Part shown: in pieces, positions 8,698-49,179 of the stretch
Numbering within the stretch: position 1 is the stretch's first letter
Layout: each line of letters starts with the position of its first letter
Source of the DNA: a virus
Taxonomy: Duplodnaviria > Caudoviricetes
Length of the DNA: 64,000 nucleotides
Reading direction: 5' to 3' (one strand)
Virus record (IMG/VR): IMGVR_UViG_3300010049_000011
Span: 64,001 to 128,000 of that record
Position numbers and translations under genes: made by a program
Notes under the pieces: model-generated
Databases searched by the model: none
Told to the model about the DNA's origin: nothing
Seen by the model: only the letters and a program-made list of their open reading frames with translations

Positions 8698-8705
8698 CGC
8701 AAAAT

Positions 8706-8714: not shown

Positions 8715-8725
8715 AACGAATTATT

Positions 8726-18580: not shown

Positions 18581-18619
18581 ATTACTAAGATGTGCAAGAA
18601 ATTACTAAGATGTGCAAGA
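18581..18619 (+). repeat. 20-bp-period tandem duplication spanning a start codon
   Basis: ATTACTAAGATGTGCAAGA at 18581 and 18601. Confidence 0.9.
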
Positions 18620-22451: not shown

Positions 22452-22803
22452 GACGGATAGACAGGTCCTGGTTTCTGTGCAAGAGATAATAGACGAGGCC
22501 TACCTAAACCTTGAGGATAAAGGAGATCTTTGTGAGTTTCACGAGAGCCTAAAGGGGTTGTTGAGGGTGGTTAAAAACCACCTATATTTCGAGCACTACA
22601 AAACTCTCTACATTGAGGAGTTAGGTTTGGGAAACAGGTTGGTTTCCGCCTTAAGACGTATAGACGTGAGAGTAGTAGGGGATTTATATAAGCCTCAGGG
22701 TCCTGTCCTTAAGGGAATCGCAGGTATCGGCGCTAAGTCCCTTCTAGACTTGAAAAAGAAACTAAAAGAGCTAGGCCTCGAACTACCGCAAAGGAAGATA
22801 TGA
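22441..22803 (+). CDS. Protein with RNA polymerase alpha-CTD-like domain
   Basis: IEELGLGNRLVSALRR..VGDL..LKGIAGIGAKSL.DLK..L.ELGLEL. Confidence 0.75.
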   Translation: MYSKTDRQVLVSVQEIIDEAYLNLEDKGDLCEFHESLKGLLRVVKNHLYFEHYKTLYIEELGLGNRLVSALRRIDVRVVGDLYKPQGPVLKGIAGIGAKSLLDLKKKLKELGLELPQRKI

Positions 22804-33924: not shown

Positions 33925-34399
33925 AGTATCTAAAAAGTCCCCTTGCCTAGAGATAATCAACGTAGACTACGTGGACGTAAAAGGAAACAAAAACAAACTA
34001 GTCGACGTTTATCTACAGGTTCCTGGGTTACAAGACGTAAACGGGTGTGGTGTGTTTCTGGGAAGTCTAGTTTACCCTCTCAAGAAATTCCTTTGTGAGA
34101 CAAAGAGGTATCCCGCCGAGAATGCTTTCTTCGGGGAAGAATCTGTAGAGAAGGAGGTTCCTTTACCTGAAGGGTTCGAGAATGTCTGTGAGAAGCAAGT
34201 AGGAAAAGACGAAAGGATCTATCGTTGGGCCTTCGATTCAAGGGAACCTCCTCTACAGGTTGTGTACTCTAAGAACAGATTTGGGTTTTGTCTCAGAGAT
34301 AGAAAAGGTAATCTTTCTAGGCTTAACTTTAAAGATCTTTATTTCGTCGCAGGCCACAAGATCTCTGAAATCGAGAAGGTAAAACGTGAATACTCCTAA
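33914..34399 (+). CDS. Hypothetical protein
   Basis: GGAGG RBS, 161 aa. Confidence 0.6.
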   Translation: MKIKVSKKSPCLEIINVDYVDVKGNKNKLVDVYLQVPGLQDVNGCGVFLGSLVYPLKKFLCETKRYPAENAFFGEESVEKEVPLPEGFENVCEKQVGKDERIYRWAFDSREPPLQVVYSKNRFGFCLRDRKGNLSRLNFKDLYFVAGHKISEIEKVKREYS

Positions 34400-35282
34400 A
34401 TTATTTATACAGGCGGGGATAAGTGGAACGGGAAAGGGGGTAAGAGTATCCAGCCTCCTGGAATTTCTTAAGACCAAATTCGCTTGTGAATCTTACGTGA
34501 TAGAGGAGTGTAACGGGTTCTTGTTCAAGAACCCTCCTCAGATAGCCGTAACCTTCCCGGAGATTAAGGTCGCCTTTATCGGGAAGTGGGTTAGATCTAA
34601 TAAGGGAGAGAGGTTAATATCTTTCCAGGGTTTAGACGCCTACTCGTTCGATGGAGGAAAATCCTATCCGGCACTATGCGAGTACTTCTTGTCTAGAGGG
34701 TTCCATCTATTCGTAGAGGGTTATTTTGCATTTAACGCTAGGATGGTTAACTTCCTTAAGGCAATCGGGTACTTACTTAACGACAGAAGCATACCTGAGT
34801 TTGCAGGAAATAAGTATTTTCCGAGCATAGTGCATTGGTTGTACTCCGACGTCGAAGAACTCCAACAGAGAATGCTTCAGAGGTCTGGGTCTCGTATAAA
34901 GGGAACTTGTTGGGGAGACAATAAATCCTGCAATAAACCTGAGAACCAGAAGATCCGTTTGAAAGAAATGCAGGAATTTTCTTGGGGAGAAGGCCGAGGG
35001 ATCGTAACTCCCGTAGAATACTCTTTTAAGAACGCTCAGGAAGACCCCATCTATTACGGAATGGTGTGTCTCGCGAAGATTGGTTACTCAGACCTCGCAA
35101 AACAGTACGCAGAGTCTGGAATAAACACTCACAGGTCCGTGAACGATCCTGAAGGGAACTCTAAGTATTCTAGGAATATCCCTACGGACTCTTCTACGAT
35201 CCATCGGATTAAAATCTCCGACAAACTTTGCAACGAAATATTTACCAATCCCCGTGGTGGGGTTAAAAAGAAGGAGGCGTAA
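34386..35282 (+). CDS. P-loop kinase, 5-hmdU DNA kinase-like
   Basis: AGISGTGKG Walker A, FIGKW..QGLD, LFVEG, R..RSG lid; co-occurs with the amino acid:DNA transferase and dUMP hydroxymethylase. Confidence 0.65.
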   Translation: MNTPKLFIQAGISGTGKGVRVSSLLEFLKTKFACESYVIEECNGFLFKNPPQIAVTFPEIKVAFIGKWVRSNKGERLISFQGLDAYSFDGGKSYPALCEYFLSRGFHLFVEGYFAFNARMVNFLKAIGYLLNDRSIPEFAGNKYFPSIVHWLYSDVEELQQRMLQRSGSRIKGTCWGDNKSCNKPENQKIRLKEMQEFSWGEGRGIVTPVEYSFKNAQEDPIYYGMVCLAKIGYSDLAKQYAESGINTHRSVNDPEGNSKYSRNIPTDSSTIHRIKISDKLCNEIFTNPRGGVKKKEA

Positions 35283-35863
35283 TGGATTGGGGGTACATAC
35301 TTCTCTCTTTAGGAATTATTTGTGCGGGAGTTAGTTTGGTTAAGTGGGGTCTAGATCAGAAACACCCTGCTTACTACATTATAGGTTATAACAACAAATA
35401 TCCCATAGGAATCTTAGGAATAGGAGACAATTTCTTCTACGATACCGAGTATTTAAAAAGCTTCACCTTCAAATTCTGGGCCAATAGATACCTAAAGGTC
35501 TTGGTTAATAGGCGGAAGAGTAGGAGTATGGAATCTAAGTATGAGGTTATATACTTGAGAGACTCCACAGACCTTGTGTCTGAGACGAGTAAAATAAGGG
35601 AGGAGAGCTTGAGAAAACATAGAGAGTGTAATGGAGCGTTCTTCGGGGAAGAACCTAAACCAGAACCTATATTAAGGAAGTGGAGGCCCGCAACTATTCC
35701 CTCCGGGGTAAAGAAGGGTTCTCTAAAGAGGATCTTGAGTAAAGATCTACCTAAGAAGAAAAGAGTCAGTAGATCTCCTGCTGTGAAAATTATTTCCCTA
35801 GCGGATCTTAAAGGTAAGAAGCTCGGAGTTACTAAGGCAGGAGTGCTTAAACTCGTAAGTTAA
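35282..35863 (+). CDS. Hypothetical membrane-anchored basic protein
   Basis: N-terminal TM helix, Lys/Arg-rich tail. Confidence 0.55.
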   Translation: MDWGYILLSLGIICAGVSLVKWGLDQKHPAYYIIGYNNKYPIGILGIGDNFFYDTEYLKSFTFKFWANRYLKVLVNRRKSRSMESKYEVIYLRDSTDLVSETSKIREESLRKHRECNGAFFGEEPKPEPILRKWRPATIPSGVKKGSLKRILSKDLPKKKRVSRSPAVKIISLADLKGKKLGVTKAGVLKLVS

Positions 35864-35897
35864 GTAAGTCTATTATCAGTGTCGAGGAGAATATCTA

Positions 35898-36149
35898 ATG
35901 CCTAAAATTTATGTCCGTGTCGGTGAAGAAGACAAAGTAAGAGAACCCTTGAAGAAAGAAGACGTCTCTAGGTGTGAACAGATAAAACCAGAAGACATCG
36001 TTAAGTTTGACGGCAAGATGGTTCAGTACAGGTTTGGGGTGATCGGAGAATACCGAGAAGCTGTAAAGGAAGACGTTTATATTGAAGGCGTTCTCAGATG
36101 GTGTGGTAAATTCTATACAAGAAACTTTAATGGAGGAATAGTAGAGTGA
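35898..36149 (+). CDS. Hypothetical protein
   Basis: GAGGAG RBS. Confidence 0.6.
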   Translation: MPKIYVRVGEEDKVREPLKKEDVSRCEQIKPEDIVKFDGKMVQYRFGVIGEYREAVKEDVYIEGVLRWCGKFYTRNFNGGIVE

Positions 36150-36796
36150 AAACAAGAAGGATTGCAGGAGTAGGGGCAGGAGGGTCAGGAAAGACCACTA
36201 CCTTAGATCTCGTAGCGAAGAAGCTTAATATTCCAGTGGAACAAGTAACCACTAAACAGGTCAGAGATAAGTACTTACTAAACTCCCAAAACGAGATACT
36301 CGCTGTCGGGAATACAGTACCTCACATAGGGATAGCTTTTCAAGAAGAGATGATAAGAACCCGGAAGGACCACTTTGATTTTTTATGTGACGGGAAATGT
36401 GTTACTGAGTTCTGCACCGACCGCACCCCGTTAGACTCTCTGGCTTATACATACTTGCAGAACTCTTATTGGGATACCGAAGAGCATATAAACGTGTTGA
36501 AGGATCTCGTCAGAGACTCTGCTGATAATTATGACTATATTTTTATGTTCCCTACTGCAGTGTTCCCTATAGAAAATAACGGGCAGCGCGGTTTGAATAG
36601 AGAATATCATAGGATGGTCGAGACGGTTATTCGTTGGCTTGCCCCCCAAGTTGGGTACGAGCTAATCGACGTACCAGTGTTCGACGATCTGGAAGCCCGC
36701 GCTCAGTGGATTTGTGATTACGTGAGTGGGGTATTCGAAACAGAAAAGATTAAAGAGATGGTGGACGATGTAGATTTTATCCACGAAGCGAGGTAA
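36146..36796 (+). CDS. P-loop nucleotide kinase (AAA_28/dNMP kinase-like)
   Basis: GAGGSGKTT, TDRTPLDSLAY, YDYIF..ENNGQR. Confidence 0.8.
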   Translation: MKTRRIAGVGAGGSGKTTTLDLVAKKLNIPVEQVTTKQVRDKYLLNSQNEILAVGNTVPHIGIAFQEEMIRTRKDHFDFLCDGKCVTEFCTDRTPLDSLAYTYLQNSYWDTEEHINVLKDLVRDSADNYDYIFMFPTAVFPIENNGQRGLNREYHRMVETVIRWLAPQVGYELIDVPVFDDLEARAQWICDYVSGVFETEKIKEMVDDVDFIHEAR

Positions 36797-36797
36797 C

Positions 36798-37436
36798 ATG
36801 CTAACGTACATAGAAGTTTCGGACAAATTCGACAGCGCAAGAAAGTCTGGTGTTAGTACTGCAGAACTCAAAGTCTGGGCCGAGCTGAGACATCTATATC
36901 AGTACAAGGCTATAGAGTTGGGGACAGACCCAGAATCCTTAGAGGAAGACGTTAGATCTAAAATCGTAAACAAGGCTCTAAAAGAACATAGAGAGACCTT
37001 CAAGGACATCGTAAGATATCTGCACGAAGAAGGGAAGAATAGCCAAGACAAGGGTGTACTGTTCCAAACGCAACGAGCGAGCGAAGAAGAGAGAATTATT
37101 AAGGTCCTCGAGAGTTTGTCGCCTAAAGAGTTGACTGTTGAGGAGATAGAGAGGGAGATACATACTATAAAGTTCTCCGAGGACGTAACGGAGTGGAAAC
37201 AGGGTGATTGGGCGAAAAGGTTAAAGTCTGTTAAAGGTATGAGTATCGCTAGCGCGTTTGTTATTCTTAAGCGCTTGGGAATGCTGTGTCTGGCTTTAAC
37301 TGCGGCGGCCTGTTCCCCTACTAAGGAAGCTCCTGCTACGATCGTACGAACCGTACCTATCTACGTAGTTCAATCTTGCGATTGTACTTTCGTGAACTAC
37401 GGGGAATTAACTTGTAACGTGGAGGTATCAAACTAA
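36798..37436 (+). CDS. YqeY/GatB-like protein with a C-terminal lipoprotein-like tail
   Basis: ARKS..KALKEHRETF..EEERIIKVLESLSPKELTVEEIE; tail KRLGMLCLALTAAACS. Confidence 0.65.
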   Translation: MLTYIEVSDKFDSARKSGVSTAELKVWAELRHLYQYKAIELGTDPESLEEDVRSKIVNKALKEHRETFKDIVRYLHEEGKNSQDKGVLFQTQRASEEERIIKVLESLSPKELTVEEIEREIHTIKFSEDVTEWKQGDWAKRLKSVKGMSIASAFVILKRLGMLCLALTAAACSPTKEAPATIVRTVPIYVVQSCDCTFVNYGELTCNVEVSN

Positions 37437-38050
37437 TGTCTAAATCCGGGAAAACTCCTCTAGCATACAACAAAGCCTCCCTCTGTGATAGGAGAATAGA
37501 CTGGGAGAAGTATAAACCAACCCTGTGGGAATTGTTCCTAGCGGATTATTGGTATAACGGTTTCCTCCTACTATTCCGTAGAGGAACTTGGGTTAGGTTG
37601 TTACAGAGACTTACTAGGGGTTGGGACGATTCAGATACGTGGTCCTTAGATGTATCTGTAGCTAAGTTTTTGCTTCCTCGATTAAAGAGATATAGAGAGT
37701 TACGCCAAGGAGTCCCCGCGGATTTGTATAGAGTGTGTTGTATGAAGTACACTCATAAGAGAATCAAGTCTGGGCAGAAGTACGAGGGCGAAGAATGCTA
37801 CGAGTATATAAAAATAAAAAACGACTGGGAACTCACGGAGAAGCAGTCTAGGGACGTCCATAATAAGGCTGAAAAGATGTGGGATACGGAAATCCGCGAG
37901 ATGATAGATTGGCTTCAGGATATTGTGGACGAGAATTCGGATGAGTTCTTCTCTCCCAAGTTCCAAAGGATTAGCCACGAAGAACGCGGCAAACTTCGTG
38001 AAAGAGGAAAGAAATTGTATTGTGAACGGTTTGAGGACTTGTGGTGGTAG
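37436..38050 (+). CDS. Conserved phage hypothetical protein
   Basis: QRLTRGWDDSDTWSLD..LPRLKRY..GVP..EMI..F.DLWW. Confidence 0.65.
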   Translation: MSKSGKTPLAYNKASLCDRRIDWEKYKPTLWELFLADYWYNGFLLLFRRGTWVRLLQRLTRGWDDSDTWSLDVSVAKFLLPRLKRYRELRQGVPADLYRVCCMKYTHKRIKSGQKYEGEECYEYIKIKNDWELTEKQSRDVHNKAEKMWDTEIREMIDWLQDIVDENSDEFFSPKFQRISHEERGKLRERGKKLYCERFEDLWW

Positions 38051-38355
38051 CTGTGAATAAACTTACGTTAGGCCTATCGGCCACATCGATAGCACTTATC
38101 GGGCTGTTCTTCGGTCTCTGGAGATATAACGCCGCTAAGAGAGAGACTGCAGAGAATACAGTTAAAGAGAGGGATGCGACAATAAGCACTCTTAAGAAGG
38201 AAGTCGAGAACCAAGTAGCGTTCGTCAAGGCCAAGGATTATGAGAATAAGAAGATTCAGGCAGAGTACGAGTCGAGGTTAGCTTCGATCCCCAGAGACGA
38301 ATGCGGCGACGCTAAACCTTCTACGGAATTATTAAACTATTTGAGAGGGAACTAG
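38041..38355 (+). CDS. Putative i-spanin (Rz-like)
   Basis: N-terminal TM helix, coiled coil, C-terminal Cys..P. Confidence 0.6.
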   Translation: MVVAVNKLTLGLSATSIALIGLFFGLWRYNAAKRETAENTVKERDATISTLKKEVENQVAFVKAKDYENKKIQAEYESRLASIPRDECGDAKPSTELLNYLRGN

Positions 38356-38357
38356 TT

Positions 38358-38855
38358 GTGGAAGCGAAGAAAATTGTAGGGACTTTTTATTTAGAGCCAG
38401 ACGAGCACATAGACTCTGATACCGTTGTCCTAAAGTTCAAAACTAATAAGAGAAACCTAGTAATAGATACATCCTGTCCGGAAGCTGCTGAGTACGTTCA
38501 GACAGGGGATTATGTTATCCCTAAGGCGAACGAAGCTGGATGTCTGTCGGGGGCCTTTATGGTTGCCTTTGGAGACATTAAGTGCAAGGAATATCTAAAG
38601 ACCTTGTACAAGGATCGGGATTATTCCGAGAGGAACTGGTTCACAGGAGATCTGCACAGCAATTTCTATCTTCAGAATTTCCAGTTAGATCCCTTGCTCT
38701 TCGAGATCCAACCATCCGAGATGTACGAACCTGAACACGAGAACCACGTGCCTTTAAAGGTGGCCTTTTTCAACTCCCTAATCGCGGACAAACCCGCCGC
38801 AGAGATTGAGTATTCGTTTTATTTCGCTAAGAGGAAAGATGGGGTATCCGCATGA
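38358..38855 (+). CDS. Hypothetical protein
   Basis: 165 aa between the spanin candidates. Confidence 0.6.
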   Translation: MEAKKIVGTFYLEPDEHIDSDTVVLKFKTNKRNLVIDTSCPEAAEYVQTGDYVIPKANEAGCLSGAFMVAFGDIKCKEYLKTLYKDRDYSERNWFTGDLHSNFYLQNFQLDPLLFEIQPSEMYEPEHENHVPLKVAFFNSLIADKPAAEIEYSFYFAKRKDGVSA

Positions 38856-39088
38856 ATTGTTCTGTCTCGAAGATACTACGGAGTCTCGCTCTATGTGTGG
38901 TCGTGGCAGGTTGTACCGTAGAGCGTAGAGACGTTATACAGACCAATCGATTCTATCAGGAGAACTTCGATAGCGGTTGCATTCGAGATGGGGTGTCTTT
39001 CTCAGAGATGATTCTGTGCCAGCAAAAAGACCTCAAGTCTGAGCATTCTCAGAACGAAATAACTAATAGACTAGTGTTTGGAGAGTAA
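38852..39088 (+). CDS. Putative o-spanin lipoprotein (Rz1-like)
   Basis: Lipobox VVAGC, 78 aa, two further Cys. Confidence 0.55.
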   Translation: MNCSVSKILRSLALCVVVAGCTVERRDVIQTNRFYQENFDSGCIRDGVSFSEMILCQQKDLKSEHSQNEITNRLVFGE

Positions 39089-39090
39089 CG

Positions 39091-39273
39091 TTGGAAGATA
39101 AGAAAGATACGAAAGTTTCAAACCCAAGCAGAACTAAGTGTGAAGTATGGACACGTGCTATGGGATACCATCGACCTGTCGAGAACTTCAACGTCGGAAA
39201 ACGTTCTGAGTTTAAAGAGAGGGTTTTCTTCTGCGTGAAGAAGACTGAGAAGAGAGTACTGGAGATAGCTTGA
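39091..39273 (+). CDS. Stand-alone NrdD C-terminal glycyl-radical domain
   Basis: TKCEVWTRAMGYHRPVENFNVGKRSEFKER..F. Confidence 0.85.
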   Translation: MEDKKDTKVSNPSRTKCEVWTRAMGYHRPVENFNVGKRSEFKERVFFCVKKTEKRVLEIA

Positions 39274-40352
39274 ATTACGGATTCAATAGGAGTGAGAGTA
39301 AATGGGAGGACTCTGTTTGGCGGTTAACTCCCGTAGAGATCCACGATACTCCTCTAGGAAGCATATATCTTAAACGCGAGGATAAGTTCTTCCTCGGAGG
39401 AGAGATGTTGTCTAACGGGTCTAAAGCTCGTCAAGGAGTATATCTCGCAAGTATGTACGCGAATAAACCCGAGATCCACACAATAATCTCTGGTATGGCT
39501 AAGAATTCCCCTTCACATTTTCATGTTCCGTCTATAGCCAGGCACTTTGGCAAAAAGTCAGTGGAGGTGATTGGTCAATGTAGGCTAGATTCCAGGTTCC
39601 TGGAAGAGACTGAGATGTGCGCTGCTGCAAACTACCTTGGAGCGTCTTTCCTCCGCGCTCCGTGCAATTATAATGCGGTTATCCAAAAGACTGCTCTCGA
39701 GTACTCTAGGAAGGATCCAGGGGTGTATTACCTTGAATATGGAATCACGTTAGATCACAAGAAACATCCTTCTGAAGAGATCTTTTTCTTCCACAGAGTG
39801 GGGGCTAACCAGGTAAACAACATTCCCTCACACATAAAGAAGTTGGTGATTGCGTTAGGTAGTGGAAACTCTGCTACGTCTGTGCTTTTAGGTATAGCGA
39901 TGTTTAGAGATAAACTCCCGAACCTTAGGAGTATTGAATTAATCGGGACAGGGCCGGATCACCTATATTACGTGAAAGAGCGTCTCAATACTATGTCGGA
40001 AGTCTCAGGAGTTGACACGGACATCTTTAAGTGGGAATACGCCTCTCTGGAACCTAGAATACTTCAAGGCGGAGGTCTGTTGGACTTCAGTGGAAAAATC
40101 CTAACAAGATTTCACGACTGCTCCGGATCCTTCGGTCTCTACAATTACGACATGAAGATACCTAACAAGATAGGAAACGTAGAGCTACACCCCCGCTACG
40201 AGGGTAAAATGTGGGATTATATTAAGAGGTCCCATCCTAGCTGGGTCAACGAAGATACTCTGTTCTGGGTTGTGGGTTCTGAACTAAAACTAGACAAGCT
40301 TAAGCAGGCCGTAGACGGATACGAAGGAAACCCTCAAGAAGTGTTTATCTAG
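39270..40352 (+). CDS. PLP-dependent (fold type II) enzyme, DNA-base decarboxylase-like
   Basis: LTPVE..YLKRED..NGSKARQ (PLP Lys), LGSGNSA, LHPRYEGK, LFWVVG. Confidence 0.8.
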   Translation: MNYGFNRSESKWEDSVWRLTPVEIHDTPLGSIYLKREDKFFLGGEMLSNGSKARQGVYLASMYANKPEIHTIISGMAKNSPSHFHVPSIARHFGKKSVEVIGQCRLDSRFLEETEMCAAANYLGASFLRAPCNYNAVIQKTALEYSRKDPGVYYLEYGITLDHKKHPSEEIFFFHRVGANQVNNIPSHIKKLVIALGSGNSATSVLLGIAMFRDKLPNLRSIELIGTGPDHLYYVKERLNTMSEVSGVDTDIFKWEYASLEPRILQGGGLLDFSGKILTRFHDCSGSFGLYNYDMKIPNKIGNVELHPRYEGKMWDYIKRSHPSWVNEDTLFWVVGSELKLDKLKQAVDGYEGNPQEVFI

Positions 40353-40364
40353 GAAGGAGAAGTT

Positions 40365-40703
40365 ATGGTTAGTATACAAAAGTCCTTAGGATTTGATTAT
40401 ACGGAGTTTACAGAAGGAAGATTGTTTTGTGTGTTAGACGTTCACGGAATGTCTTTAGATAGCAGTTATAGGTATGTTCGAGGATCTATTGAATATCTCT
40501 ACTCTCAGAATCTTCGCAACGTTAAAGTTATTACAGGTCACGGAGAAGTGTACAACAAGCTCGAGGAGTGGCTCGAAGACATGTTTGACTCGTTTATTTC
40601 GATGGATCGGAAGAATGGCTGGTATGAAATAACTCTAAGGAAACAGGAACATCTACGTGCTTCTAGCCTGCGTAAAGGATCTAATTGTGGAAAAAGACTA
40701 TAG
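40365..40703 (+). CDS. Stand-alone Smr domain protein
   Basis: LDVHGMS..VKVITGHG..L.EWL..N.G. Confidence 0.8.
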   Translation: MVSIQKSLGFDYTEFTEGRLFCVLDVHGMSLDSSYRYVRGSIEYLYSQNLRNVKVITGHGEVYNKLEEWLEDMFDSFISMDRKNGWYEITLRKQEHLRASSLRKGSNCGKRL

Positions 40704-41799
40704 GATCAACGACCTCGCGACCCGTCAAGAGTACTTCGATGACTGGTTCGCGTTTATGGCTGAGTACGGCATCTTCGCAGGATGTGTTCAGCTATATTTT
40801 CCTGAGTTCGCGAAGAGATTGAATCTGAGTCGCGAGCAGAGGTTCTGGTGGGCCTGGGTAAACTCCCACTGCCAGAATGCTTGTGTGACATATACGATCA
40901 CGAGGTTCTTCCCAGACCTCCCTCGAACCGAAGAAGAAATATCTCGCCTGGAAGAATGGTACAGTAAAAACTGGCGTAGAATGGAGTACGACACGGACCA
41001 ACGTTATAGAAAGGCTAAGCTCGTTAGCGAGTTGCGTGATTATTTGTCTCTTTTAAATGGTAGGACCCAAGAGCAGGTTTTCGACGTTGATCTAGCAGAC
41101 CCTGACCCAAAGAAATACTTCCGTAACGTGCATGACTTTATCGAACAAATAAAGGGTTGGGGAAGACTCACTTGCTGGTCTGGGACAGAATTCTATAAGT
41201 GTCTAGCAGATCTCCCTGTCGAGTGGGATTCTTTCATGATGTATAACGTTGATGGGTCAAAATCTCACAGGAACGGGTGTTTCAAATCCTACGCTAAGGA
41301 CGACTTAGTGTGGGATAAGAGAGAACCCGTCTTCGACGAGAAGAACAGACCAGATTCCCAACTCTGTTCGTTCGCAGAATCTTTAGGTTGGCAGACCGTA
41401 AAGAGGTTGAGAGAGAAATATAAAGAAAAACCCTGGTTCAGGTTTATCGGGCCGGAGACAGTAGAGACAGCCTTCTGCTCTTACAAGAACAGCTTTTACG
41501 GACGCAGGTACGTAACCGTGTATTGTGATATGTCTTATAAACGGATTAAAAGAGCGGAGAGGGATTGGCCAGAAGTGAACTACTCTATCTTCTGGGATAT
41601 ACGCAGAGAACGCCTCCCTAAGAAGATTCTCCTCGAGTATAACCCTCGAGATGCGGAGATATGCAACTCGATGTCCGATCTATCTAAGGTTAAGAAGGCG
41701 CACGTGTTTAAGGAAACTGGAACCCCTCCTATGATGTCCGTCTTATTTCCGGGTAAGTATCGCAGCAGTTATGATGAAGAATTTTTGGAACAGAATTAA
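40687..41799 (+). CDS. Amino acid:DNA transferase (aGPT-Pplase2 family)
   Basis: YDTDQRY, HhH-like IKGWGRLTCWSG.E, DGSKSHRNG, ETAFCSYK, RRYV.VY.D, FWDIR..LP; GTG 40687 with AAGGA. Confidence 0.8.
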   Translation: MEKDYRINDLATRQEYFDDWFAFMAEYGIFAGCVQLYFPEFAKRLNLSREQRFWWAWVNSHCQNACVTYTITRFFPDLPRTEEEISRLEEWYSKNWRRMEYDTDQRYRKAKLVSELRDYLSLLNGRTQEQVFDVDLADPDPKKYFRNVHDFIEQIKGWGRLTCWSGTEFYKCLADLPVEWDSFMMYNVDGSKSHRNGCFKSYAKDDLVWDKREPVFDEKNRPDSQLCSFAESLGWQTVKRLREKYKEKPWFRFIGPETVETAFCSYKNSFYGRRYVTVYCDMSYKRIKRAERDWPEVNYSIFWDIRRERLPKKILLEYNPRDAEICNSMSDLSKVKKAHVFKETGTPPMMSVLFPGKYRSSYDEEFLEQN

Positions 41800-42058
41800 G
41801 TCTCTCAGGGACAGTCTCAACTTAGAGATCCTGTTTGGCCCCTTTTGGTTCCTCTTTAAGGACCTGTTATACGATCTTTTACACATCACCGTTTTCTCAG
41901 TTAAATTTACTTTTAAGTTAGGGTTTTATCTTCTATTTTGTGTTTTTTGGACACTGAACCTTCCAGTCATGATGTTCCAATCAAAAATAACAGTCTTGAA
42001 CAGTGTGCAGAATCTAGTAAATAAGATCAGATCAATCAACGGAGAAATAAGTGAGTAA
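41771..42058 (+). CDS. Hypothetical membrane protein
   Basis: Hydrophobic 95 aa. Confidence 0.5.
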   Translation: MMKNFWNRIKSLRDSLNLEILFGPFWFLFKDLLYDLLHITVFSVKFTFKLGFYLLFCVFWTLNLPVMMFQSKITVLNSVQNLVNKIRSINGEISE

Positions 42059-42272
42059 ATCAGACAATCAAGAGAAAAACGTATATATTAGTGCTAAAGA
42101 GCAGCAGAGGTTGGATAAGAAGTTATATCACGAGAATTTTTTAAAAAAGAATGCGCTACACGTACTCCATCAAAATTTTAGGACAGATGAGGAATTGCGT
42201 GATTATTGTTTTAACACTTACGGCCCTTATTACGGTGCAGATCTATACGCCTATTTAGGTAAAGCGTCCTAG
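42051..42272 (+). CDS. Hypothetical protein
   Basis: GGAG RBS. Confidence 0.55.
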   Translation: MSKSDNQEKNVYISAKEQQRLDKKLYHENFLKKNALHVLHQNFRTDEELRDYCFNTYGPYYGADLYAYLGKAS

Positions 42273-42277
42273 GAATT

Positions 42278-42286
42278 GTTCTAAAT
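42278..42286 (+). promoter_or_regulatory. Putative late promoter GTTCTAAAT
   Basis: GTTCTAAATCTTAGCTAATT nearly identical to the 1477 context. Confidence 0.6.
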
Positions 42287-42314
42287 CTTAGCTAATTATG
42301 TACGGATTTCAGTA

Positions 42315-42827
42315 ATGGATTTGCTCGCTCTCAAGACACTTGTTAAGGATTTTATCACCTCTCCCGAGGAGGAAGCGACGTTCAAGTCCGTAGCTTCTGA
42401 CGAATCTTCGAAGATGGTAATGTTCTTGACCGAAGAGTCTAGAGGAAAGATACAGGAATTCTGCGAGAGATGGGAACTTCCTTGTAGTCAAGAGAAACTT
42501 CTCGAACCGATCGTACTGCTCCGCTCAGACAAGGAACTTAGGTTCCCTGAACTAATCGAAATTGAGGGCCAGGTTATACATACTAGTGGTTTAAGCATCG
42601 AAAACACAGACGAAGGCTCTGATATATTCTTCATCTACCGTAGCCCAACAATCGACAACATAGTCGCTAGGACTGTAGAGATGCTCTCAGAACTTAAGAT
42701 AGATGACGAGAGAAACGAAAGAGTAGTTTTCTGGAGGGATGCTAACCCCAGACAGGCTCTGGACTCTAATAACGACTTTAATCCTAGACTCGAGTTGAGT
42801 GTTTATTTAGAGATCGAGAAAGCGTAG
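42315..42827 (+). CDS. Hypothetical late protein (possibly tail completion)
   Basis: After a late motif; no firm family motif. Confidence 0.4.
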   Translation: MDLLALKTLVKDFITSPEEEATFKSVASDESSKMVMFLTEESRGKIQEFCERWELPCSQEKLLEPIVLLRSDKELRFPELIEIEGQVIHTSGLSIENTDEGSDIFFIYRSPTIDNIVARTVEMLSELKIDDERNERVVFWRDANPRQALDSNNDFNPRLELSVYLEIEKA

Positions 42828-43072
42828 TGGTCGCATCAATTCCTCTGAGATTCTACTATACGTGCACTAAGTGTAACCTAAACTCGGTAGAGTTCGTCAC
42901 TAAGGATGGCAAAGTTCCATCTGGGACCCAAAAATTCATGAAAGACCGTGGTTGGTATCTAAGCGTTGATATTTGTTTGTGTCCTAAATGTAATAAACGA
43001 GATCCTACTAAGACGCACCACTCCTTACTTAAATACAAGTTAAAAGATAAGACAAGCAATTTTCAATTATAG
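42827..43072 (+). CDS. Small zinc-ribbon protein
   Basis: CTKC..GW..CPKC. Confidence 0.6.
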   Translation: MVASIPLRFYYTCTKCNLNSVEFVTKDGKVPSGTQKFMKDRGWYLSVDICLCPKCNKRDPTKTHHSLLKYKLKDKTSNFQL

Positions 43073-43082
43073 AGACACCTAG

Positions 43083-45386
43083 ATGGCAGCAACAGTATTT
43101 CTTCCTCGCAGAGGCTCAACGTCCCAGATGGCGTTATTCACCGGACAACCAGCCGAGCTAACAGTAGATACTACTAAGAGTGTTGTAGTTATGCACGACG
43201 GTATAGTTCCTGGGGGCTACCCGCTGTTGAGGGAAGATTTCGGAAACGTAAACCCTGCTACCGCAGCAAACTCCCTAATAGCCCTCAGGTCTATGTCTAA
43301 CGTTTCTCCAGACAGTATTGCTCAGCTAGGAATAGCTTACGCTGACCTGAATAACATGACGAATCTATCGAGTCAGGGTAAGTCTGTTATTCTTGAGTCT
43401 ATAACTCCTTCTGATCTAGACGGACTCGGAGCAGCCTTGGTAGACATGTCTAACGTCTCTTTATCTGCTGTGTTGGATCTTGGAGTAGCCGCCCAAGACA
43501 TGACTAATGTGAATAGGCAGAACGTGCTAAACTTGGGTATAGCTTCCAGCACCCTGGCCGAGAACACGGATATACTCTCTTACATTGATCCCTTAGCAAA
43601 TAACGATTTATCGAACATAAATTGGGATGCTGTAGATTTCTCTGCGATGCCTCTATTAAACGTAGACGGGTCTAATGCAGCGTCAATAAGTAAGGTTTTG
43701 ACCCAGTCTCTGAGAAACTTGGTTATTAACGGAAACTTCTCTGTAAACATCGGAGATTACGTTCCGGGTACTCCCGTGTCTGTTCCTGTAAACCCCGATC
43801 CGGAACCCCTACCTCTATATACCGGTTGGAGCACCGTTGTAGATGGATCTTACGTTGATAAGACTCAAACATCTTCTTCGGGACAAGACCCTATCGGATC
43901 ATCCATCGTGTTTGGAGAAATATTCTCTGACGTATGCGATTGGCAGGAGACTCAGTTCAATAGGAGCTCTCCTAGCATAACTGCTTGGTTTACTTCGCAA
44001 ACGTATGTTGAAGACGGTTCCTTCCAAATAAACCTCATCTCTGAAAATGGAACCGTAACCTTATGGAGCTTCGGCCCGTTTACGGAAGACGCCAACAACC
44101 CAGGACTATGGGTCGGTGATAACCCTTTAACAAGCACGGCTGCTAGCGCTCTAGAGACGTTCAGAATTCAAATAATCTCAGGAACTTCAGGGTCGTATAA
44201 AGAAACTACGTTCAACATGCTAACTCTAGATTTGTGCGGCCACGTATCCCCGTACGAACAGAGGCCGATTACTTTAGAGAAGTGCTTAGCTGCTGACCCC
44301 GTACAGATGGTCCAGGACGAGACTGAGAGAGCTATAGCAGCAGAACGTGCACTACAGGCCCTCGGAGGCAAGTGGATCGGTGAGAATTTCCCTAACTACT
44401 ACATGTCTCTTCCGTCAACGGTTAACTTTATTAGGCCCTCTAACTTTGATCCAGTCGGGTATAATAACGTAGAGTTTGCTTCCTTAACTGATCTCCAAAA
44501 CGCTGACCCGTCTCCCTCAGAAGGAGATGTAGGTATAGTAACAACGGACTGGAGGACAGTAACTTACTACTTATACACGAGCGGATCTTGGGTTGCTCAG
44601 ACCCCGGACGCTAACTCAGCCTACACATACTTGCAGGGAGTCGTAAGTGGGTCTAACCCGACTCCTGACCCGAACGATTGGTTTAGGATTCAGCAAGACA
44701 TGCCTAGAGGAGGCAATACTACTCAGTGGGTTTGGTCTACAGCAGTTTCACAGACTCAACCTACGTTTAACTTTAACTTTATACTATCTATAAAACCTAG
44801 AGATTTTGAGACCGACCCCATACAGTTAGACGAGACGTCTACAGTAATACAGACTTTATTGTCTTACGTGGATACGGGAGACAGTATTTCGACTCTGTTG
44901 GCCGGTAAGCAGAACACAATAGGGCTGACTCCAGGGTTCTTTGTTCTGCGAGGAGATCCTACAGGGTCTTTTATCCAGAATACTTGGGTCGTATCTACCT
45001 CTGATTCTTACGCTGTATCCACAGACAGTGAGATTTACACTGCGGCGCGAGTGGATGCCTTGGTGGCAGCTTCGATAGGATCTATCCCTATTGGAGCACT
45101 CCCCTTGCTTCCTACTAATGTAGGGCAGTATACTCTGTCGTACGACGGGACTAACTATTCTTGGAGGAACCAGCAGTTCCAAGAAACGGATTTAACCCCA
45201 CAGATAACTGGGTCTAACACAGTATTCAATATTAGCTCTCTGATAAACAACACTTGCTACGTCCAGGTCTTCTTTAACGGGTTAAAACAGAGGGCTACTA
45301 ACTTTACGATAAACTATAGTGCGTTGACGCTGACCCTCGGATTCACTCCGGCTACGACAGACGCCTTAGAGATAGTGTGGGTCTAG
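43083..45386 (+). CDS. Fibre/virion protein with Mtd_N-like N-terminus
   Basis: PRRGST..FTG.PAELTVDT..MHDG..GGYPL; A..DMSNV repeats; RNLVINGNF. Confidence 0.75.
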   Translation: MAATVFLPRRGSTSQMALFTGQPAELTVDTTKSVVVMHDGIVPGGYPLLREDFGNVNPATAANSLIALRSMSNVSPDSIAQLGIAYADLNNMTNLSSQGKSVILESITPSDLDGLGAALVDMSNVSLSAVLDLGVAAQDMTNVNRQNVLNLGIASSTLAENTDILSYIDPLANNDLSNINWDAVDFSAMPLLNVDGSNAASISKVLTQSLRNLVINGNFSVNIGDYVPGTPVSVPVNPDPEPLPLYTGWSTVVDGSYVDKTQTSSSGQDPIGSSIVFGEIFSDVCDWQETQFNRSSPSITAWFTSQTYVEDGSFQINLISENGTVTLWSFGPFTEDANNPGLWVGDNPLTSTAASALETFRIQIISGTSGSYKETTFNMLTLDLCGHVSPYEQRPITLEKCLAADPVQMVQDETERAIAAERALQALGGKWIGENFPNYYMSLPSTVNFIRPSNFDPVGYNNVEFASLTDLQNADPSPSEGDVGIVTTDWRTVTYYLYTSGSWVAQTPDANSAYTYLQGVVSGSNPTPDPNDWFRIQQDMPRGGNTTQWVWSTAVSQTQPTFNFNFILSIKPRDFETDPIQLDETSTVIQTLLSYVDTGDSISTLLAGKQNTIGLTPGFFVLRGDPTGSFIQNTWVVSTSDSYAVSTDSEIYTAARVDALVAASIGSIPIGALPLLPTNVGQYTLSYDGTNYSWRNQQFQETDLTPQITGSNTVFNISSLINNTCYVQVFFNGLKQRATNFTINYSALTLTLGFTPATTDALEIVWV

Positions 45387-45390
45387 TAAT

Positions 45391-45768
45391 ATGGACGAAT
45401 ATAGGCAATTATCCACAGGGGTGCTCGAAGTAGTCCTTCAGCGCCAGGGAACTGTCAACTGGCACGACTTAATGTTGTCTACATCAAACGGTGGTGTGGC
45501 TCTAAATACCCCTCCTGTGACTACTATAGATCCCGATTCAGGAGTTATAACTACCGTTGTAGGGAACAACGTAACCAAGACTCGGATTGTCAGACCCCAA
45601 CCCAACGACTGTGGTTGGATGGATGGTACCCAGACGCATTCTTTAGACTTAGGAGTGATTGGAGATCTTGTTGACGATTCTCTTGACCTAGGATCTCCAA
45701 CTAATGTTGTAGAGCAGCCTTGGATGGTTATGCCTGAAGATATTACTCTTCCTTGGGTTTCTGTTTAA
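45391..45768 (+). CDS. Small virion/fibre-associated protein
   Basis: LDLG..LDLG acidic repeats; follows the fibre gene. Confidence 0.5.
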   Translation: MDEYRQLSTGVLEVVLQRQGTVNWHDLMLSTSNGGVALNTPPVTTIDPDSGVITTVVGNNVTKTRIVRPQPNDCGWMDGTQTHSLDLGVIGDLVDDSLDLGSPTNVVEQPWMVMPEDITLPWVSV

Positions 45769-45848
45769 ATTTATTTAATACCTTTGCTAGGTTATTACTA
45801 TCACACCTAAACTTTTCACTTGCCTTTTGGAAAGAAGCAAGCTATAGT
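45768..45848 (+). promoter_or_regulatory. Early sigma70-type promoter with upstream box
   Basis: Box ends 45792; TTGCCT 45820; 17 bp; TATAGT 45843. Confidence 0.8.
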
Positions 45849-45909
45849 TCGTTCTGAGTTGTGTCCGCAAGTAAAATGTTTGAAGGGAGATTACGGTTGG
45901 ATGTGTGTT

Positions 45910-47289
45910 ATGAACTATAGAGAAATAAGCTCGGACTTACAGATCTGCGTAAACGGGCAGAAGAAACAATACGCAGATTCTATCCAACTTATAGCCTCAG
46001 AGAATTACCCAAGTCAAGCAGTTCTCGATCTCATGGGTAGTTGTCTGTCTGCAAAATATTCCGAAGGATATCCAGGTAAAAGACATTACGGAGGTTGCTC
46101 GATAGTTGATGAAGTTGAGCAATTCGCAATAGACAAGGCGTGTGAGTTGTTTAAATGTGATTATGCGAACGTCCAACCTTGGAGCGGAAGCCAAGCCAAT
46201 CAGGCGGTGTACTTAGCTTTCCTAAAACCGCATGAAGTTATACTGTCTATGTCTTTGTCTAGCGGAGCTCACTTAACTCACGGAAGCAGGTTTACTTCCT
46301 CCGGTAAGTTTTATGTTCACAAGGAGTTTGATCTTGACGAGAATAACGAGATAAGCATGATTCTTTTGAGTAAGTCTCTAAAGGAACACCAACCACGTAT
46401 GCTAATCATGGGGTACTCTGCGTACTCCCGAAAGATTAGCTTCGCACAAGTGCGTGAAGAGGTTGATCGCCACAACACTTGGTTGTGGTTGCACTTAAAA
46501 GAGATGTCTATCGGTATAGAGGAAGCGATCGTAGAGGAAACTTACGAGAGTAAGAAATGTCTCTTGATGGTCGATATGGCCCACTTTGCGGGTATAGTAG
46601 CAGCCTCCACCCGCACGAACGTTCAAGATCTGTTAAACGACGCAAACCTGTTGTGGGAAGATGAATGTCTCCCGTTCCCCTATGCAGACGTCGTGACTAG
46701 CACAACCCACAAGACTTTAAGAGGGCCGAGAGGAGGCCTTATTCTCTGGAACGATGAATCCTTTACTAACAAGATAAACCATGCAGTATTTCCAGGCATC
46801 CAAGGAGGAGCCAACCAAGCAACAATAGCAGCGAAGGCCCAGTGTTTTATAGAGGCCCTGGACTCTGAGTTTAAAAGATATATAAACAACGTTCTCAGGA
46901 ACACCCAGGCCTTAATCAGAGGATTGCTCAGTACTGACGATAGGCTGAAGGTAGTGACTGGGGGTTCTGACAACCACATGATTTTGTTGGACTTGAAAGG
47001 GATTAACTTACTGGGGTCGGACGCTGAGTCCGCATTGGAATCTGTAGACATCATCTGCAATAAGAATTTAATGCCGGGAGACAAGAAACCCGCTGAATCT
47101 TCTGCTATACGTTTAGGGACAGCCGCTATGACTTCGCGAGGGTTCACAGAACAAGTGTTCGAGGACTTAGGAGTTGTGATTGCCAAAGTGTTAGCGAAAG
47201 CTGCAGGAAGATGTCTCTTCTACGAGGATAAGACCGTTTACTCGAGACAGGTTGCTGGTTGGGTTAAAGAGTTCCCGTTGGAGTATTGA
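45910..47289 (+). CDS. glyA: Serine hydroxymethyltransferase
   Basis: LIASEN, KYSEGYPGKRHYGGC, NVQP.SGSQAN, DMAHFAG, TTHKTLRGPRGG, RLGTAAMTSRG; two short insertions. Confidence 0.97.
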   Translation: MNYREISSDLQICVNGQKKQYADSIQLIASENYPSQAVLDLMGSCLSAKYSEGYPGKRHYGGCSIVDEVEQFAIDKACELFKCDYANVQPWSGSQANQAVYLAFLKPHEVILSMSLSSGAHLTHGSRFTSSGKFYVHKEFDLDENNEISMILLSKSLKEHQPRMLIMGYSAYSRKISFAQVREEVDRHNTWLWLHLKEMSIGIEEAIVEETYESKKCLLMVDMAHFAGIVAASTRTNVQDLLNDANLLWEDECLPFPYADVVTSTTHKTLRGPRGGLILWNDESFTNKINHAVFPGIQGGANQATIAAKAQCFIEALDSEFKRYINNVLRNTQALIRGLLSTDDRLKVVTGGSDNHMILLDLKGINLLGSDAESALESVDIICNKNLMPGDKKPAESSAIRLGTAAMTSRGFTEQVFEDLGVVIAKVLAKAAGRCLFYEDKTVYSRQVAGWVKEFPLEY

Positions 47290-47292
47290 ATA

Positions 47293-47421
47293 ATGTGCTA
47301 CGATGTATTTTGGTGCCCTATGTGTCGAGGTTCTGGTAAGATCTTGAGTTGCGACGTGTTCTCGTTCTTATGCGGGCCGAGATTCGAAGTATGTACGTTC
47401 TGTCGTACCTGGAGTGGTTGA
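47293..47421 (+). CDS. 42-aa Cys-rich zinc-finger microprotein
   Basis: Not in track: MCYDVFWCPMCRGSGKILSCDVFSFLCGPRFEVCTFCRTWSG*. Confidence 0.5.
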   Translation: MCYDVFWCPMCRGSGKILSCDVFSFLCGPRFEVCTFCRTWSG

Positions 47422-47466
47422 TTGTGTTCTGAGTTATATTGAACAACCGTGTAAAGGAGGAAAATA

Positions 47467-48615
47467 ATGCCGTTTAAATTTGCAGAAAAGAAGTATATCC
47501 ACCGAAACGCAGACACTCTGATCGTGGATATCGTGAAGGACTTGAGAGAGATAGACGATGTCCAACAGTCCCGCCTCGGAGATTACACCAAGGAGATTCT
47601 CGGGGCCTCCTCTGTCTTGACCGATGCCCGGAATGTGTGGCAGACCAATAAGGGGAGGAAATATAATTTTATCCACGCCATCGCAGAAACTGTCTGGATG
47701 CTATCCGGGAACAAGGATCTAGACTTCCTTGAAAAGTTTCTTCCACAGTGTCGAGCGTTCTCGGATGATGGGTTACATTGGCGTAGTTGTTACGGTCCGA
47801 GAATCCGTAATTGGGTCGGAAGGAACGATAACAACTACTGTCGTAAAGGAGAACCCGAAGAAATGGTTCTCGACCAGTGGAAAAATGCTATAGAAGAACT
47901 CCAAACGCGACCGGACTCTCGACAAGCTATAGTTCAGATATGGGATCCTTGTGTTTGTGGAGATTTCCGTGGCCGCGAGAAAGTTCTCGACAGGGCGTGT
48001 AACCGCAGTGTTGACTTCAAACTGCGGGATAACAAACTGTCTATATTTATTGAAAACAGGAGCAACGACGTCTACTGGGGGTTGTCTTCCATAAATCTTG
48101 TTGAGTTCAGTATAATGCTCCAACTAACCGCCTCCGTACTCGGTTGCGAGTTAGGGCACCAACAACACGATTCGAGATCTCTCCACGTCTATAACAGGCA
48201 TTTCGATAAAATTGAAGAGTTACTGACGGACAAAGAATTGCTCGAAGATTTTAGCATATCCAACACTGAGGGGGATTCTTGTAATTTTGAAAAGTTGCCG
48301 AACTTCGCGACACTATCAGATATATTGGATCTTACGTATAAGAACATTGAACATGCAACGAAGAATCCTGGGAGGAAACATTTACTGGAACCTAACGACC
48401 TCTTGGAGGGACGTAGGGAAGATAAACTGTCCGAATATGCGAAGCTCTACCCCAATATAGTATATACTTTAAACATCCCTGTGTTGAAGTACGTTGAGGA
48501 AGATTCCCTCCGCGGAGAAGTCTTCGGCCTTATGAACAGGAATCTACACCCTGCCTTGAAAATCCTCCTCGAAAGGAAGTACTTGAAGGTAGACGCAGTT
48601 ATTATCGGGGGTTAG
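47467..48615 (+). CDS. Thymidylate-synthase-fold dUMP hydroxymethylase
   Basis: AET.WMLSG, YGPRIR, DSRQA..IWDP, catalytic DRACN, RSNDVYWGLSSIN (Asn = dUMP-type), SLHVY. Confidence 0.8.
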   Translation: MPFKFAEKKYIHRNADTLIVDIVKDLREIDDVQQSRLGDYTKEILGASSVLTDARNVWQTNKGRKYNFIHAIAETVWMLSGNKDLDFLEKFLPQCRAFSDDGLHWRSCYGPRIRNWVGRNDNNYCRKGEPEEMVLDQWKNAIEELQTRPDSRQAIVQIWDPCVCGDFRGREKVLDRACNRSVDFKLRDNKLSIFIENRSNDVYWGLSSINLVEFSIMLQLTASVLGCELGHQQHDSRSLHVYNRHFDKIEELLTDKELLEDFSISNTEGDSCNFEKLPNFATLSDILDLTYKNIEHATKNPGRKHLLEPNDLLEGRREDKLSEYAKLYPNIVYTLNIPVLKYVEEDSLRGEVFGLMNRNLHPALKILLERKYLKVDAVIIGG

Positions 48616-48636: not shown

Positions 48637-49179
48637 ATGAAGACTTTGATCGTAAACATATTTGGTTCTCCGGGAGTAGGAAAGAGCTCCTTCGCGGCAG
48701 ATCTGTTCGCACGTCTTAAGTACTCTGGAATATCCTCAGAACTAGTCACAGAATACGCTAAGAGGTTGGTGTGGGAGGAAGACTGGAGAGGGTTAAGAAA
48801 CCAACTCCAGATCCTCTCTGAAGCCGTCCGTACCCTTGAAACTTTGGATGGTAAAGTAAGGGTTATTGTGAACGAGCAATGTGTATTGAATTCTATCGTT
48901 TTCGTAACTCCCGAGTCCAGGATCAATACAGATTACTTTGCCCAATATGTACTATCTCTAGACGAGAAATATGGCGGACTCAACTTCTTCGTCGACAGGG
49001 AACCTGTGTTCACAGAAGAAGGTGCTCGCGTTCAGAAGACTAAAGAAGAATCTGACATGCTAAAGGAGAGAATTTTAGGAGTCCTTGATATGTCAAAAAG
49101 ACCCTACGAGAGGGTCTCTTCTTGTGACAGCATGTTCGATGTGGTTATAGGACTCTTAGAGAACGATACCTTCGTCTGA
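48637..49179 (+). CDS. P-loop kinase/ATPase (AAA_28-like)
   Basis: NIFGSPGVGKSS, ELVTEYAK.LVW, R.Q..EES. Confidence 0.8.
   Translation: MKTLIVNIFGSPGVGKSSFAADLFARLKYSGISSELVTEYAKRLVWEEDWRGLRNQLQILSEAVRTLETLDGKVRVIVNEQCVLNSIVFVTPESRINTDYFAQYVLSLDEKYGGLNFFVDREPVFTEEGARVQKTKEESDMLKERILGVLDMSKRPYERVSSCDSMFDVVIGLLENDTFV

Follow-up and report, generated by a model that had tools for sequence, protein, structure and literature searches.

A predicted ViI-type thymidine hypermodification pathway in a distant, uncultured contractile-tailed phage

We analyzed a 64,000-nucleotide stretch of DNA from an uncultured phage (the window; bases 64001-128000 of the linear, 145,122-bp IMG/VR virus record IMGVR_UViG_3300010049_000011), and we consider it highly probable that this phage encodes a thymidine hypermodification pathway of the type known from Salmonella phage ViI (Kuttervirus). 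The conclusion is based on protein homology, intact catalytic residues, predicted folds, gene linkage, and natural gene fusions among homologues. From these we infer the activities of the enzymes, the donor used by the amino acid:DNA transferase (AADT), and the extent to which thymine is replaced. A first-pass annotation had proposed a dispersed pathway of this kind at positions 34386-48615 (the interval) in a divergent myovirus. The genes that it named were all present at or near the coordinates given, with matches far beyond chance. Positions are those of the window unless marked "genome", which refers to the whole record. Four of the encoded enzymes are homologous to ViI enzymes and have intact catalytic residues:

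34386-35282, plus strand: predicted 5-hydroxymethyldeoxyuridine (5-hmdU) DNA kinase of the HMUD2 type, 298 amino acids (PF18747, E = 2.9e-18)
39270-40352, plus strand: fold-type II pyridoxal phosphate (PLP) enzyme, homologue of the ViI gp226 decarboxylase, 360 amino acids (phrog_3650, 4e-70)
40687-41799, plus strand: AADT, of the family formerly called aGPT-Pplase2, 370 amino acids (ADDT, PF18724, E = 1.5e-19)
47467-48615, plus strand: predicted dUMP hydroxymethylase with a thymidylate synthase (TS) fold, 382 amino acids (PF00303, E = 2e-24)

The phage genome encodes a T4-like portal protein, a tail sheath and a GroEL-like chaperonin, consistent with a contractile-tailed phage. Among cultured phages, the closest portal proteins were those of QdP_Psa3 (a Pseudomonas phage) and phiXF1 (a Xanthomonas phage), both about 30% identical. 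At the nucleotide level, the whole interval matched none of 50,697 phage records by megablast. The description as a divergent myovirus is therefore a fair one. The record is about 58% complete by the CheckV estimate, and the genome-wide absences reported below refer to these 145 kb.

In ViI, the pathway to 5-(2-aminoethoxy)methyl-dU (5-NeOmdU) comprises a dUMP hydroxymethylase, the 5-hmdU DNA kinases (5-HMUDK) gp67 and gp243, gp160, the serine:DNA transferase gp247, and the PLP decarboxylase gp226 (PMC5889632, PMC8989533). The activities of gp243, gp247 and gp226 have been demonstrated (PMC8989533). We took the ViI proteins named in Table 1 of PMC8989533 from NC_015296 and compared them pairwise with the proteins encoded here. 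Only seven proteins were detectable by BLAST between about 120 kb of ViI and this genome, and five of these, including gp160, are pathway proteins. This genome has homologues of gp243, gp160, gp247, gp226 and the TS-like enzyme, with identities of 22-37%; otherwise the phages are unrelated (two further detectable shared proteins). Of the five proteins used in the published lysate reconstitution, four have homologues here, as does the hydroxymethylase; gp67 does not. The comparison suggested in the first-pass annotation, of the kinase, AADT and PLP enzyme with their ViI counterparts and of the TS-fold enzyme with the SPO1 hydroxymethylase, thus found homology in each case (values below). In both phages the pathway genes are scattered, a small kinase gene follows the TS-like gene, and there is no homologue of a radical-SAM isomerase. 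The scatter over 14 kb, treated at first as an oddity, is not unusual, because the homologous ViI genes lie at 37-39, 87-89, 140-142 and 149-152 kb of a 157-kb genome and so span more than 110 kb. The phages differ in that no gp67-type kinase was found here, the AADT belongs to another clade with another donor pocket, and an ORF with an Smr domain lies between the PLP and AADT genes. In addition, a serine hydroxymethyltransferase (SHMT) gene stands beside the hydroxymethylase gene here, whereas ViI-type phages in the phage collection have no SHMT.

The kinase at 34386 scored 66.5 bits against the Pfam HMUD2 profile (curated cut-off, 25), with profile coverage of positions 2-181 of 298. It was 29% identical to ViI gp243 in pairwise comparison (E = 1e-14). 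The GxSGTGKG of the P-loop (Walker A) is conserved, as GISGTGKG in the kinase (G11-ISGTGKG-18) and GTSGTGKG in gp243. The founding HMUD2 member, gp243, has been found experimentally to phosphorylate 5-hmdU DNA (PMC8989533). These matches bear out the P-loop kinase of the first-pass annotation and support the prediction that it phosphorylates the hydroxymethyl group of 5-hmdU in DNA. The annotation had described the 5-HMUDK step as pyrophosphorylation, which is wrong: the enzyme transfers a single phosphate, yielding 5-phosphomethyl-dU (5-PmdU) and ADP (PMC8989533). The annotation had also suggested scanning the rest of the genome for aGPT-Pplase1 genes. One such gene was found, outside the window and 12 kb upstream of its start:

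genome 51341-52339, minus strand: HMUDK_hel protein (PF18723, 126 bits, E = 2e-36)

Its score is above the curated Pfam cut-off, and the protein is homologous to M6 gp55 (E = 5.5e-13) and ViI gp160 (8e-11).

The PLP enzyme at 39270 was 32% identical to gp226 over its full length (E = 1e-60; phmmer, 2.7e-56); similarity to M6 gp52 was far weaker (0.002). It also matched a threonine-dehydratase PHROG (4e-8) and gave no match in Pfam. The Schiff-base lysine, K52 in the motif NGSKARQ, is invariant in 29 homologues and aligns with the lysine of NGSKLRQ in gp226, which we take to be the K92 named in PMC8989533. The best matches to the predicted structure (predicted local distance difference test [pLDDT] of 88) were D-cysteine desulfhydrase and 1-aminocyclopropane-1-carboxylate deaminase, including 1j0a, and hence fold-type II; 1j0a is the template reported for gp226 (PMC8989533). 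The fold-type II assignment made from the sequence at the outset therefore holds, and the data support a predicted role as a decarboxylase of amino-acid-thymine adducts. A search of viral contigs with the PLP protein returned no relative.

The AADT scored 71.1 bits against its profile (curated cut-off, 26.2) and was recovered again by the genome search. The likeliest start is the GTG at 40687, the one chosen in the first-pass annotation, rather than 40657, since AAGGA precedes it and the N-termini of homologues agree. The protein was 29% identical to ViI gp247 (E = 5e-29); together with the ADDT match, this establishes that the proposed aGPT-Pplase2-type protein is homologous to AADT. Family members share the motif E260-T261-x-x-C264-x-x-K267...R-Y275, and 103 of 105 homologues in the alignment had its E-T-x-x-C part (E260-T261-A-F-C264 in the numbering of the 370-residue protein). 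The motif corresponds to the Glu-Thr pair that binds metal and the catalytic Cys, both of which have been defined by mutagenesis (PMC13458397). A sequence search of the PDB with the AADT gave chance matches only. PaMx11 gp46 (8z2m, 8z2n) was reached by a fold search with the predicted structure (pLDDT 95.3), as the sole match at a probability of 1.00 (template modelling [TM] score by target, 0.60-0.62; next match, 0.15). The model has the all-helical fold, containing a helix-hairpin-helix, that is characteristic of the family. Only 214 relatives of the AADT turned up when 1.84 billion cluster representatives were searched exhaustively.

Gene organization ties the AADT to the PLP enzyme. In the window the two genes are separated solely by a short ORF, which overlaps the AADT start:

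40365-40703, plus strand: Smr-domain ORF, 112 amino acids (PF01713, 1.6e-6)

The closest AADT homologues (54% and 41% identity), accompanied by PLP homologues (50% and 36%), came from two uncultured-phage contigs, L012 (Logan SRR13494361) and L013 (ENA ERZ27279261). Their phage backbones are unrelated, and in each the AADT gene directly follows the PLP gene. Both of these uncharacterised relatives resemble the phage studied here in having TS-like and HMUDK_hel genes nearby. They differ in their phage backbones (podovirus-like; PolA and primase type), in the types of their TS-like proteins, and in lacking SHMT. We also found four natural fusions among the AADT homologues: AADT followed by PLP enzyme (P0011 and P0025), PLP enzyme followed by AADT (P0038), and HMUD2 kinase, PLP enzyme and AADT in one protein (P0016). 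The 50-row AADT clade that holds the protein at 40687 also includes all four fusions. A pair that changes phage backbones and has been fused repeatedly is likely to be a functional core. A structure prediction for the complex of AADT and PLP enzyme scored 0.22 against a mark of 0.32, which counts neither for nor against binding.

The two relatives also differ from each other. In L012, the TS-fold protein (8277-9794) has 505 amino acids with a long C-terminal extension and no BLAST similarity to the TS-fold protein of the window, which indicates that the PLP-AADT module pairs with different hydroxymethylase lineages. Besides the PLP-AADT pair, L013 encodes a dCMP deaminase, HMUDK_hel and a kinase resembling HMUD1. 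The TS-fold protein of L013 (14961-15782) has Asp at the base-specificity site (PYDMGFF), as in T4 gp42, and may act on cytosine. Neither relative has the Smr-domain ORF between its adjoining PLP and AADT genes; this ORF may be an insert encoding a nicking endonuclease.

The donor used by the AADT is less clear than its family. In a FastTree phylogeny of 105 AADT domains, the protein at 40687 fell in an 11-row clade (support 100) within the 50-row clade (support 95), which holds no characterised member. ViI gp247 fell in a separate 6-row clade (support 98). In addition, the AADT has S265, directly after the catalytic Cys, and N268 where the ViI clade has Trp and Lys. By tree position and by pocket residues it therefore lies outside the ViI serine clade, and a serine donor gains no support from clade membership. 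Directly after the catalytic Cys, the glycine enzymes have Lys, the diamine enzyme has Gly, members of the ViI clade have Trp, and the protein studied here has Ser (alignment; PMC13458397). A Tyr that helps bind the donor carboxylate in the YuA enzyme is replaced by Asp in the phage 15599 enzyme, which uses a diamine (PMC13458397). This Tyr is kept here as Y275, which favors an amino-acid donor over a polyamine. The donor is not assignable from sequence; serine, giving 5-NeOmdU, is the simplest guess and the leading candidate. The ViI-like reading of the first-pass annotation thus stands for the enzymes, which are homologous to their ViI counterparts, but its serine is not backed by the AADT clade. 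Its caveat that the base could be new was justified, given the position outside the serine clade and the different residue beside the catalytic Cys.

The same pathway architecture might work with a donor other than serine, such as threonine, homoserine, cysteine, or a diamino acid attached through its side-chain amine. We regard this as a serious possibility, although we would give it somewhat less than an even chance, and we are equally tentative about its consequence, that the PLP-decarboxylated virion base would be a thymidine hypermodification not yet described. Two observations point, with the same reservation, to a non-serine amino acid: the AADT belongs to a large uncharacterised clade whose members are repeatedly linked or fused to gp226-like PLP enzymes, and its pocket is unlike that of ViI. 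S265 and N268 also differ from the M6/YuA type (Lys), and two pocket residues suffice to switch the donor in this family (PMC13458397). The E value of 5e-29 to gp247 is weaker than the 1e-50 cut-off of the published similarity network, so that there would be no direct link to gp247 there (PMC13458397). On the other hand, the PLP partner is clearly a gp226 homologue, and the only characterised AADT that has such a partner and no isomerase uses serine. Pocket residues are highly variable even in PLP-fused AADTs, so a residue change need not mean a change of donor.

A route like that of M6 is very unlikely. In the Pseudomonas phage M6/YuA pathway to 5-(2-aminoethyl)-dU (5-NedU), the components are the glycine:DNA transferase gp51, the radical-SAM isomerase gp53, the PLP decarboxylase gp52, the kinase gp54, and gp55. 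The corresponding route here would attach SHMT-derived glycine through its amine, isomerize the adduct with a radical-SAM-like protein, and decarboxylate it to 5-(2-aminoethyl)-dU. The order of kinase, AADT and PLP decarboxylase is the same in both systems, HMUDK_hel is a homologue of M6 gp55, an SHMT gene that could yield glycine stands beside the pathway genes, and the genome does encode five radical-SAM-like paralogues. However, none of the 194 ORFs of this incomplete genome is homologous to M6 gp53 (phmmer, E ≤ 0.1), and the PLP enzyme is related to gp226 (1e-60) far more closely than to M6 gp52 (0.002). The AADT is about 20% identical to the M6 enzyme, and the residue adjoining its catalytic Cys is not the Lys with which the YuA and M6 enzymes hold the carboxylate of glycine (PMC13458397). 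The kinase is of the HMUD2 and not the HMUD1 type, and the M6 genes form one tight cluster. The radical-SAM-like genes are distant (about 90 kb) and make up a separate cluster in which other ORFs are interleaved.

The first-pass annotation had recommended a genome scan for radical-SAM genes, having seen none in the window. The scan agreed as far as a gp53 homologue is concerned, but radical-SAM-like genes do exist outside the window. The five paralogues (genome 4.1-11.1 kb) are 295-337 amino acids long, have CxxxCxxC motifs, and match phrog_1802, a PHROG family other than that of gp53, at 1e-8 to 1e-11; against Pfam they score below the cut-off. We rejected a link between them and the M6 isomerase for lack of gp53 homology by phmmer. 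In this repeated array of enzyme and partner genes (G000:C1:2748-11135; L004, L006-L009), these ORFs are interleaved with five ORFs of 216-239 amino acids that have no family match. An NrdG-like protein is also encoded in the genome.

The TS-fold enzyme at 47467 would supply the 5-hmdU precursor. Identity was 34% to gp29 of Bacillus phage SPO1, an established dUMP hydroxymethylase, and 37% to the ThyA homologue of ViI (E = 1e-44), but 22% to ThyA of E. coli. Its closest phage homologues are in phages containing 5-hmdU, and its best solved relative is the CMP hydroxymethylase MilA (1e-20); one solved TS, 6auj, scored 7e-17. It contains the motif RSNDVYWGLSSIN, whose Asn, N210, aligns with N177 of E. 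coli ThyA, D179 of T4 gp42, and an Asp of MilA; SPO1 gp29 and the ViI protein also have Asn. The Asn reported in the first-pass annotation at the ThyA N177-equivalent position is thus correct, and it leads us to expect specificity for uracil. The hydroxymethylase signature consists of Asp or Glu, in place of the Leu of TS, at the third position ahead of the catalytic Cys (Cys-3), and of Ser or Thr at the second position ahead of a conserved Tyr (Tyr-2) (PMC6400193, T4 dCMP hydroxymethylase ternary complex). The enzyme has both features, in D175-R-A-C178 (catalytic Cys, C178) and S107-C-Y109, whereas E. coli ThyA has L-A-P-C and P-V-Y (alignment A2). It shares the TS fold, the catalytic Cys and the Asp at Cys-3 with SPO1 gp29 and T4 gp42. 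With gp29 it has further in common its length, the FSDDG motif, one residue inserted ahead of the specificity Asn, and, in place of the TS tail, about 120 additional amino acids at the C terminus. T4 gp42 differs in having Asp at the specificity site, so that it acts on cytosine. SPO1 differs in stopping at 5-hmdU, without a kinase, AADT or PLP module. From these diagnostic residues and nearest homologues, the enzyme most likely makes 5-hmdUMP.

It is most improbable that the protein is instead an ordinary TS or a dCMP hydroxymethylase, with the kinase, AADT and PLP enzyme acting on another base or carried as inactive cargo: "thymidylate synthase" would be the default annotation and the match to 6auj is close to that of MilA, but Asp replaces the TS Leu at Cys-3 and Ser stands at Tyr-2 (PMC6400193), the specificity residue is Asn and not Asp, the TS tail is replaced by an extension like that of SPO1 gp29 (383 amino acids), the nearest phage homologues belong to phages with 5-hmdU, and a 5-hmdU-specific kinase family is present alongside downstream enzymes whose catalytic residues are all intact. 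A cassette directed at cytosine was likewise rejected, because the specificity residue is Asn and a 5-hmdU kinase family is represented.

The gene directly upstream of the hydroxymethylase gene lies inside the interval and had been missing from the first-pass gene list:

45820-47289, plus strand: SHMT, up to 489 amino acids, with the start probably near 45901-45910 (PF00464, E = 5e-118)

This match, like that of the TS-fold enzyme to PF00303, exceeds the curated Pfam cut-off, and the PLP-lysine motif of the SHMT, TSTTHKTLRGPRGG, is intact (K298). We infer that it regenerates 5,10-methylene-tetrahydrofolate (methylene-THF) from THF and serine. Hydroxymethylases release THF, which can be recycled by SHMT alone, whereas TS needs dihydrofolate reductase (DHFR) (PMC6400193). 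This fits both the adjacent SHMT gene and the finding that the 145-kb record encodes no DHFR, no ThyX and no second TS. Phage SHMT is rare: 50 of the 50,697 phage records had matches, many of them short unannotated fragments. The clear full-length phage SHMTs listed were from Aeromonas phages of about 170 kb, and no ViI-, SPO1- or M6-type phage was among the matches. The pairing of SHMT with a hydroxymethylase was not seen among thymine-modifying phages in this collection. The run of SHMT, hydroxymethylase and kinase genes suggests that the phage secures its own supply of methylene-THF for 5-hmdUMP synthesis.

Further genes could act on the nucleotide pool:

36146-36796, plus strand: small P-loop nucleotide kinase, 216 amino acids (AAA_28, 1.3e-9; phrog_2107 "thymidylate kinase", 3.9e-14)
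48637-49179, plus strand: small P-loop nucleotide kinase, 180 amino acids (AAA_28, 1.3e-7; phrog_2107, 9e-14)
21788-22171, plus strand: MazG-like nucleoside triphosphate pyrophosphohydrolase, 127 amino acids (PF03819, 28 bits; cut-off, 22)
genome 57784-58245, plus strand, outside the window and 6 kb upstream of its start: dUTPase-family protein, beside NrdG- and NrdD-like genes

The two small kinases are those proposed in the first-pass annotation. The gene at 48637 begins 22 bp downstream of the hydroxymethylase gene, an arrangement that mirrors the adjacency of thyA and dnk in ViI, and its product is the best candidate for a 5-hmdUMP kinase. The kinase at 36146, a homologue of which is encoded near the TS-like gene of QdP_Psa3, is a candidate deoxynucleoside monophosphate (5-hmdUMP) kinase; both substrates are presumed. 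The proposed MazG-like gene is real, but it lies outside the interval to which it had been assigned. By analogy with the dTTPase/dUTPase of phage 15599 (PMC13458397), its product is a candidate for clearing dTTP and dUTP. The dUTPase and HMUDK_hel probably also belong to the pathway.

Several points weigh against a complete ViI-type pathway. Besides the position of the AADT outside the gp247 clade and its divergent pocket, the C-terminal third of the kinase at 34386 is unmatched by the HMUD2 profile, and neither an HMUD1-type kinase like ViI gp67 nor a dCMP deaminase was found in the record. The roles given to the small kinases and the MazG-like protein follow from family-level matches and gene position. 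The phage is uncultured, and the pathway is predicted from its genes.

The nearest cultured relative by both portal and TS-like protein, QdP_Psa3 (L019, PV055685.1: 1-12539), has the same hydroxymethylase-type TS (DRAC, SDDG and Asn), yet nothing in it matched ADDT or HMUD2, which makes the post-replicative module look like a mobile addition. QdP_Psa3 also has genes for a nucleotide-sugar epimerase, a UDP-glucose dehydrogenase and a nucleotidyltransferase nearby, which might indicate a different decoration of 5-hmdU.

Taken together, these assignments suggest the following pathway. The TS-fold enzyme would convert dUMP to 5-hmdUMP with release of THF, which SHMT would recharge with the one-carbon unit of serine. 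One or both small kinases would convert 5-hmdUMP to the diphosphate, while the MazG-like enzyme and the dUTPase would probably deplete dTTP and dUTP, and 5-hmdU would be polymerized in place of T. After replication, the HMUD2 kinase, probably aided by HMUDK_hel, would phosphorylate 5-hmdU in the DNA. The AADT, using its catalytic Cys and metal site, would then exchange the phosphate for an amino acid, and the gp226-like PLP enzyme would strip the carboxylate from the adduct. The product would be a decarboxylated amino-acid adduct of 5-hmdU; the leading candidate, from serine, is 5-(2-aminoethoxy)methyl-dU.

We recognized no further tailoring enzymes (acetyltransferase, FAD lyase, amidoligase or methyltransferase) in the interval. 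Pfam, PHROGs and NCBIfam gave nothing usable for the ORFs at 33914, 35282, 36798, 37436, 38358 and 42315, and an ESM Atlas look-up of the ORF at 37436 gave phage hypothetical clusters only. Adjoining the MazG-like gene is an ORF (22399-22803, plus strand) with a domain that resembles the C-terminal domain of the alpha subunit of bacterial RNA polymerase (PF03118, 2e-8). Two proteins have the N-terminal domain of the major tropism determinant (Mtd_N; 18592-19944 and 43083-45386, both plus strand); the second, of 767 amino acids, lies among the nucleotide-metabolism genes. Beyond the interval, an ORF at 49557-50174 (plus strand), with a D...ExK-like motif and matches to phrog_2776 and phrog_5429 ("DNA repair protein"), precedes an ORF for a nucleotidyltransferase of the CCA-adding and poly(A) polymerase family (50411-51433, plus strand).

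The locus is a new example of a known system in a distant phage, with three modest twists: the coupling of the hydroxymethylase with an SHMT, a 5-hmdU DNA kinase of the HMUD2 type only, and an AADT of an uncharacterised clade. A published metavirome survey was queried with HMUD1-type kinases (PMC8989533) and would have missed a locus that has only an HMUD2 kinase. Thymidine hypermodifications protect phage DNA against restriction enzymes and are a source of DNA-labelling enzymes, and a ViI-type gene set in an unrelated phage provides a well-defined test case. If the donor is not serine, the AADT clade would point to a new family of DNA bases, and the SHMT and hydroxymethylase would constitute a self-contained one-carbon supply for a new modification.

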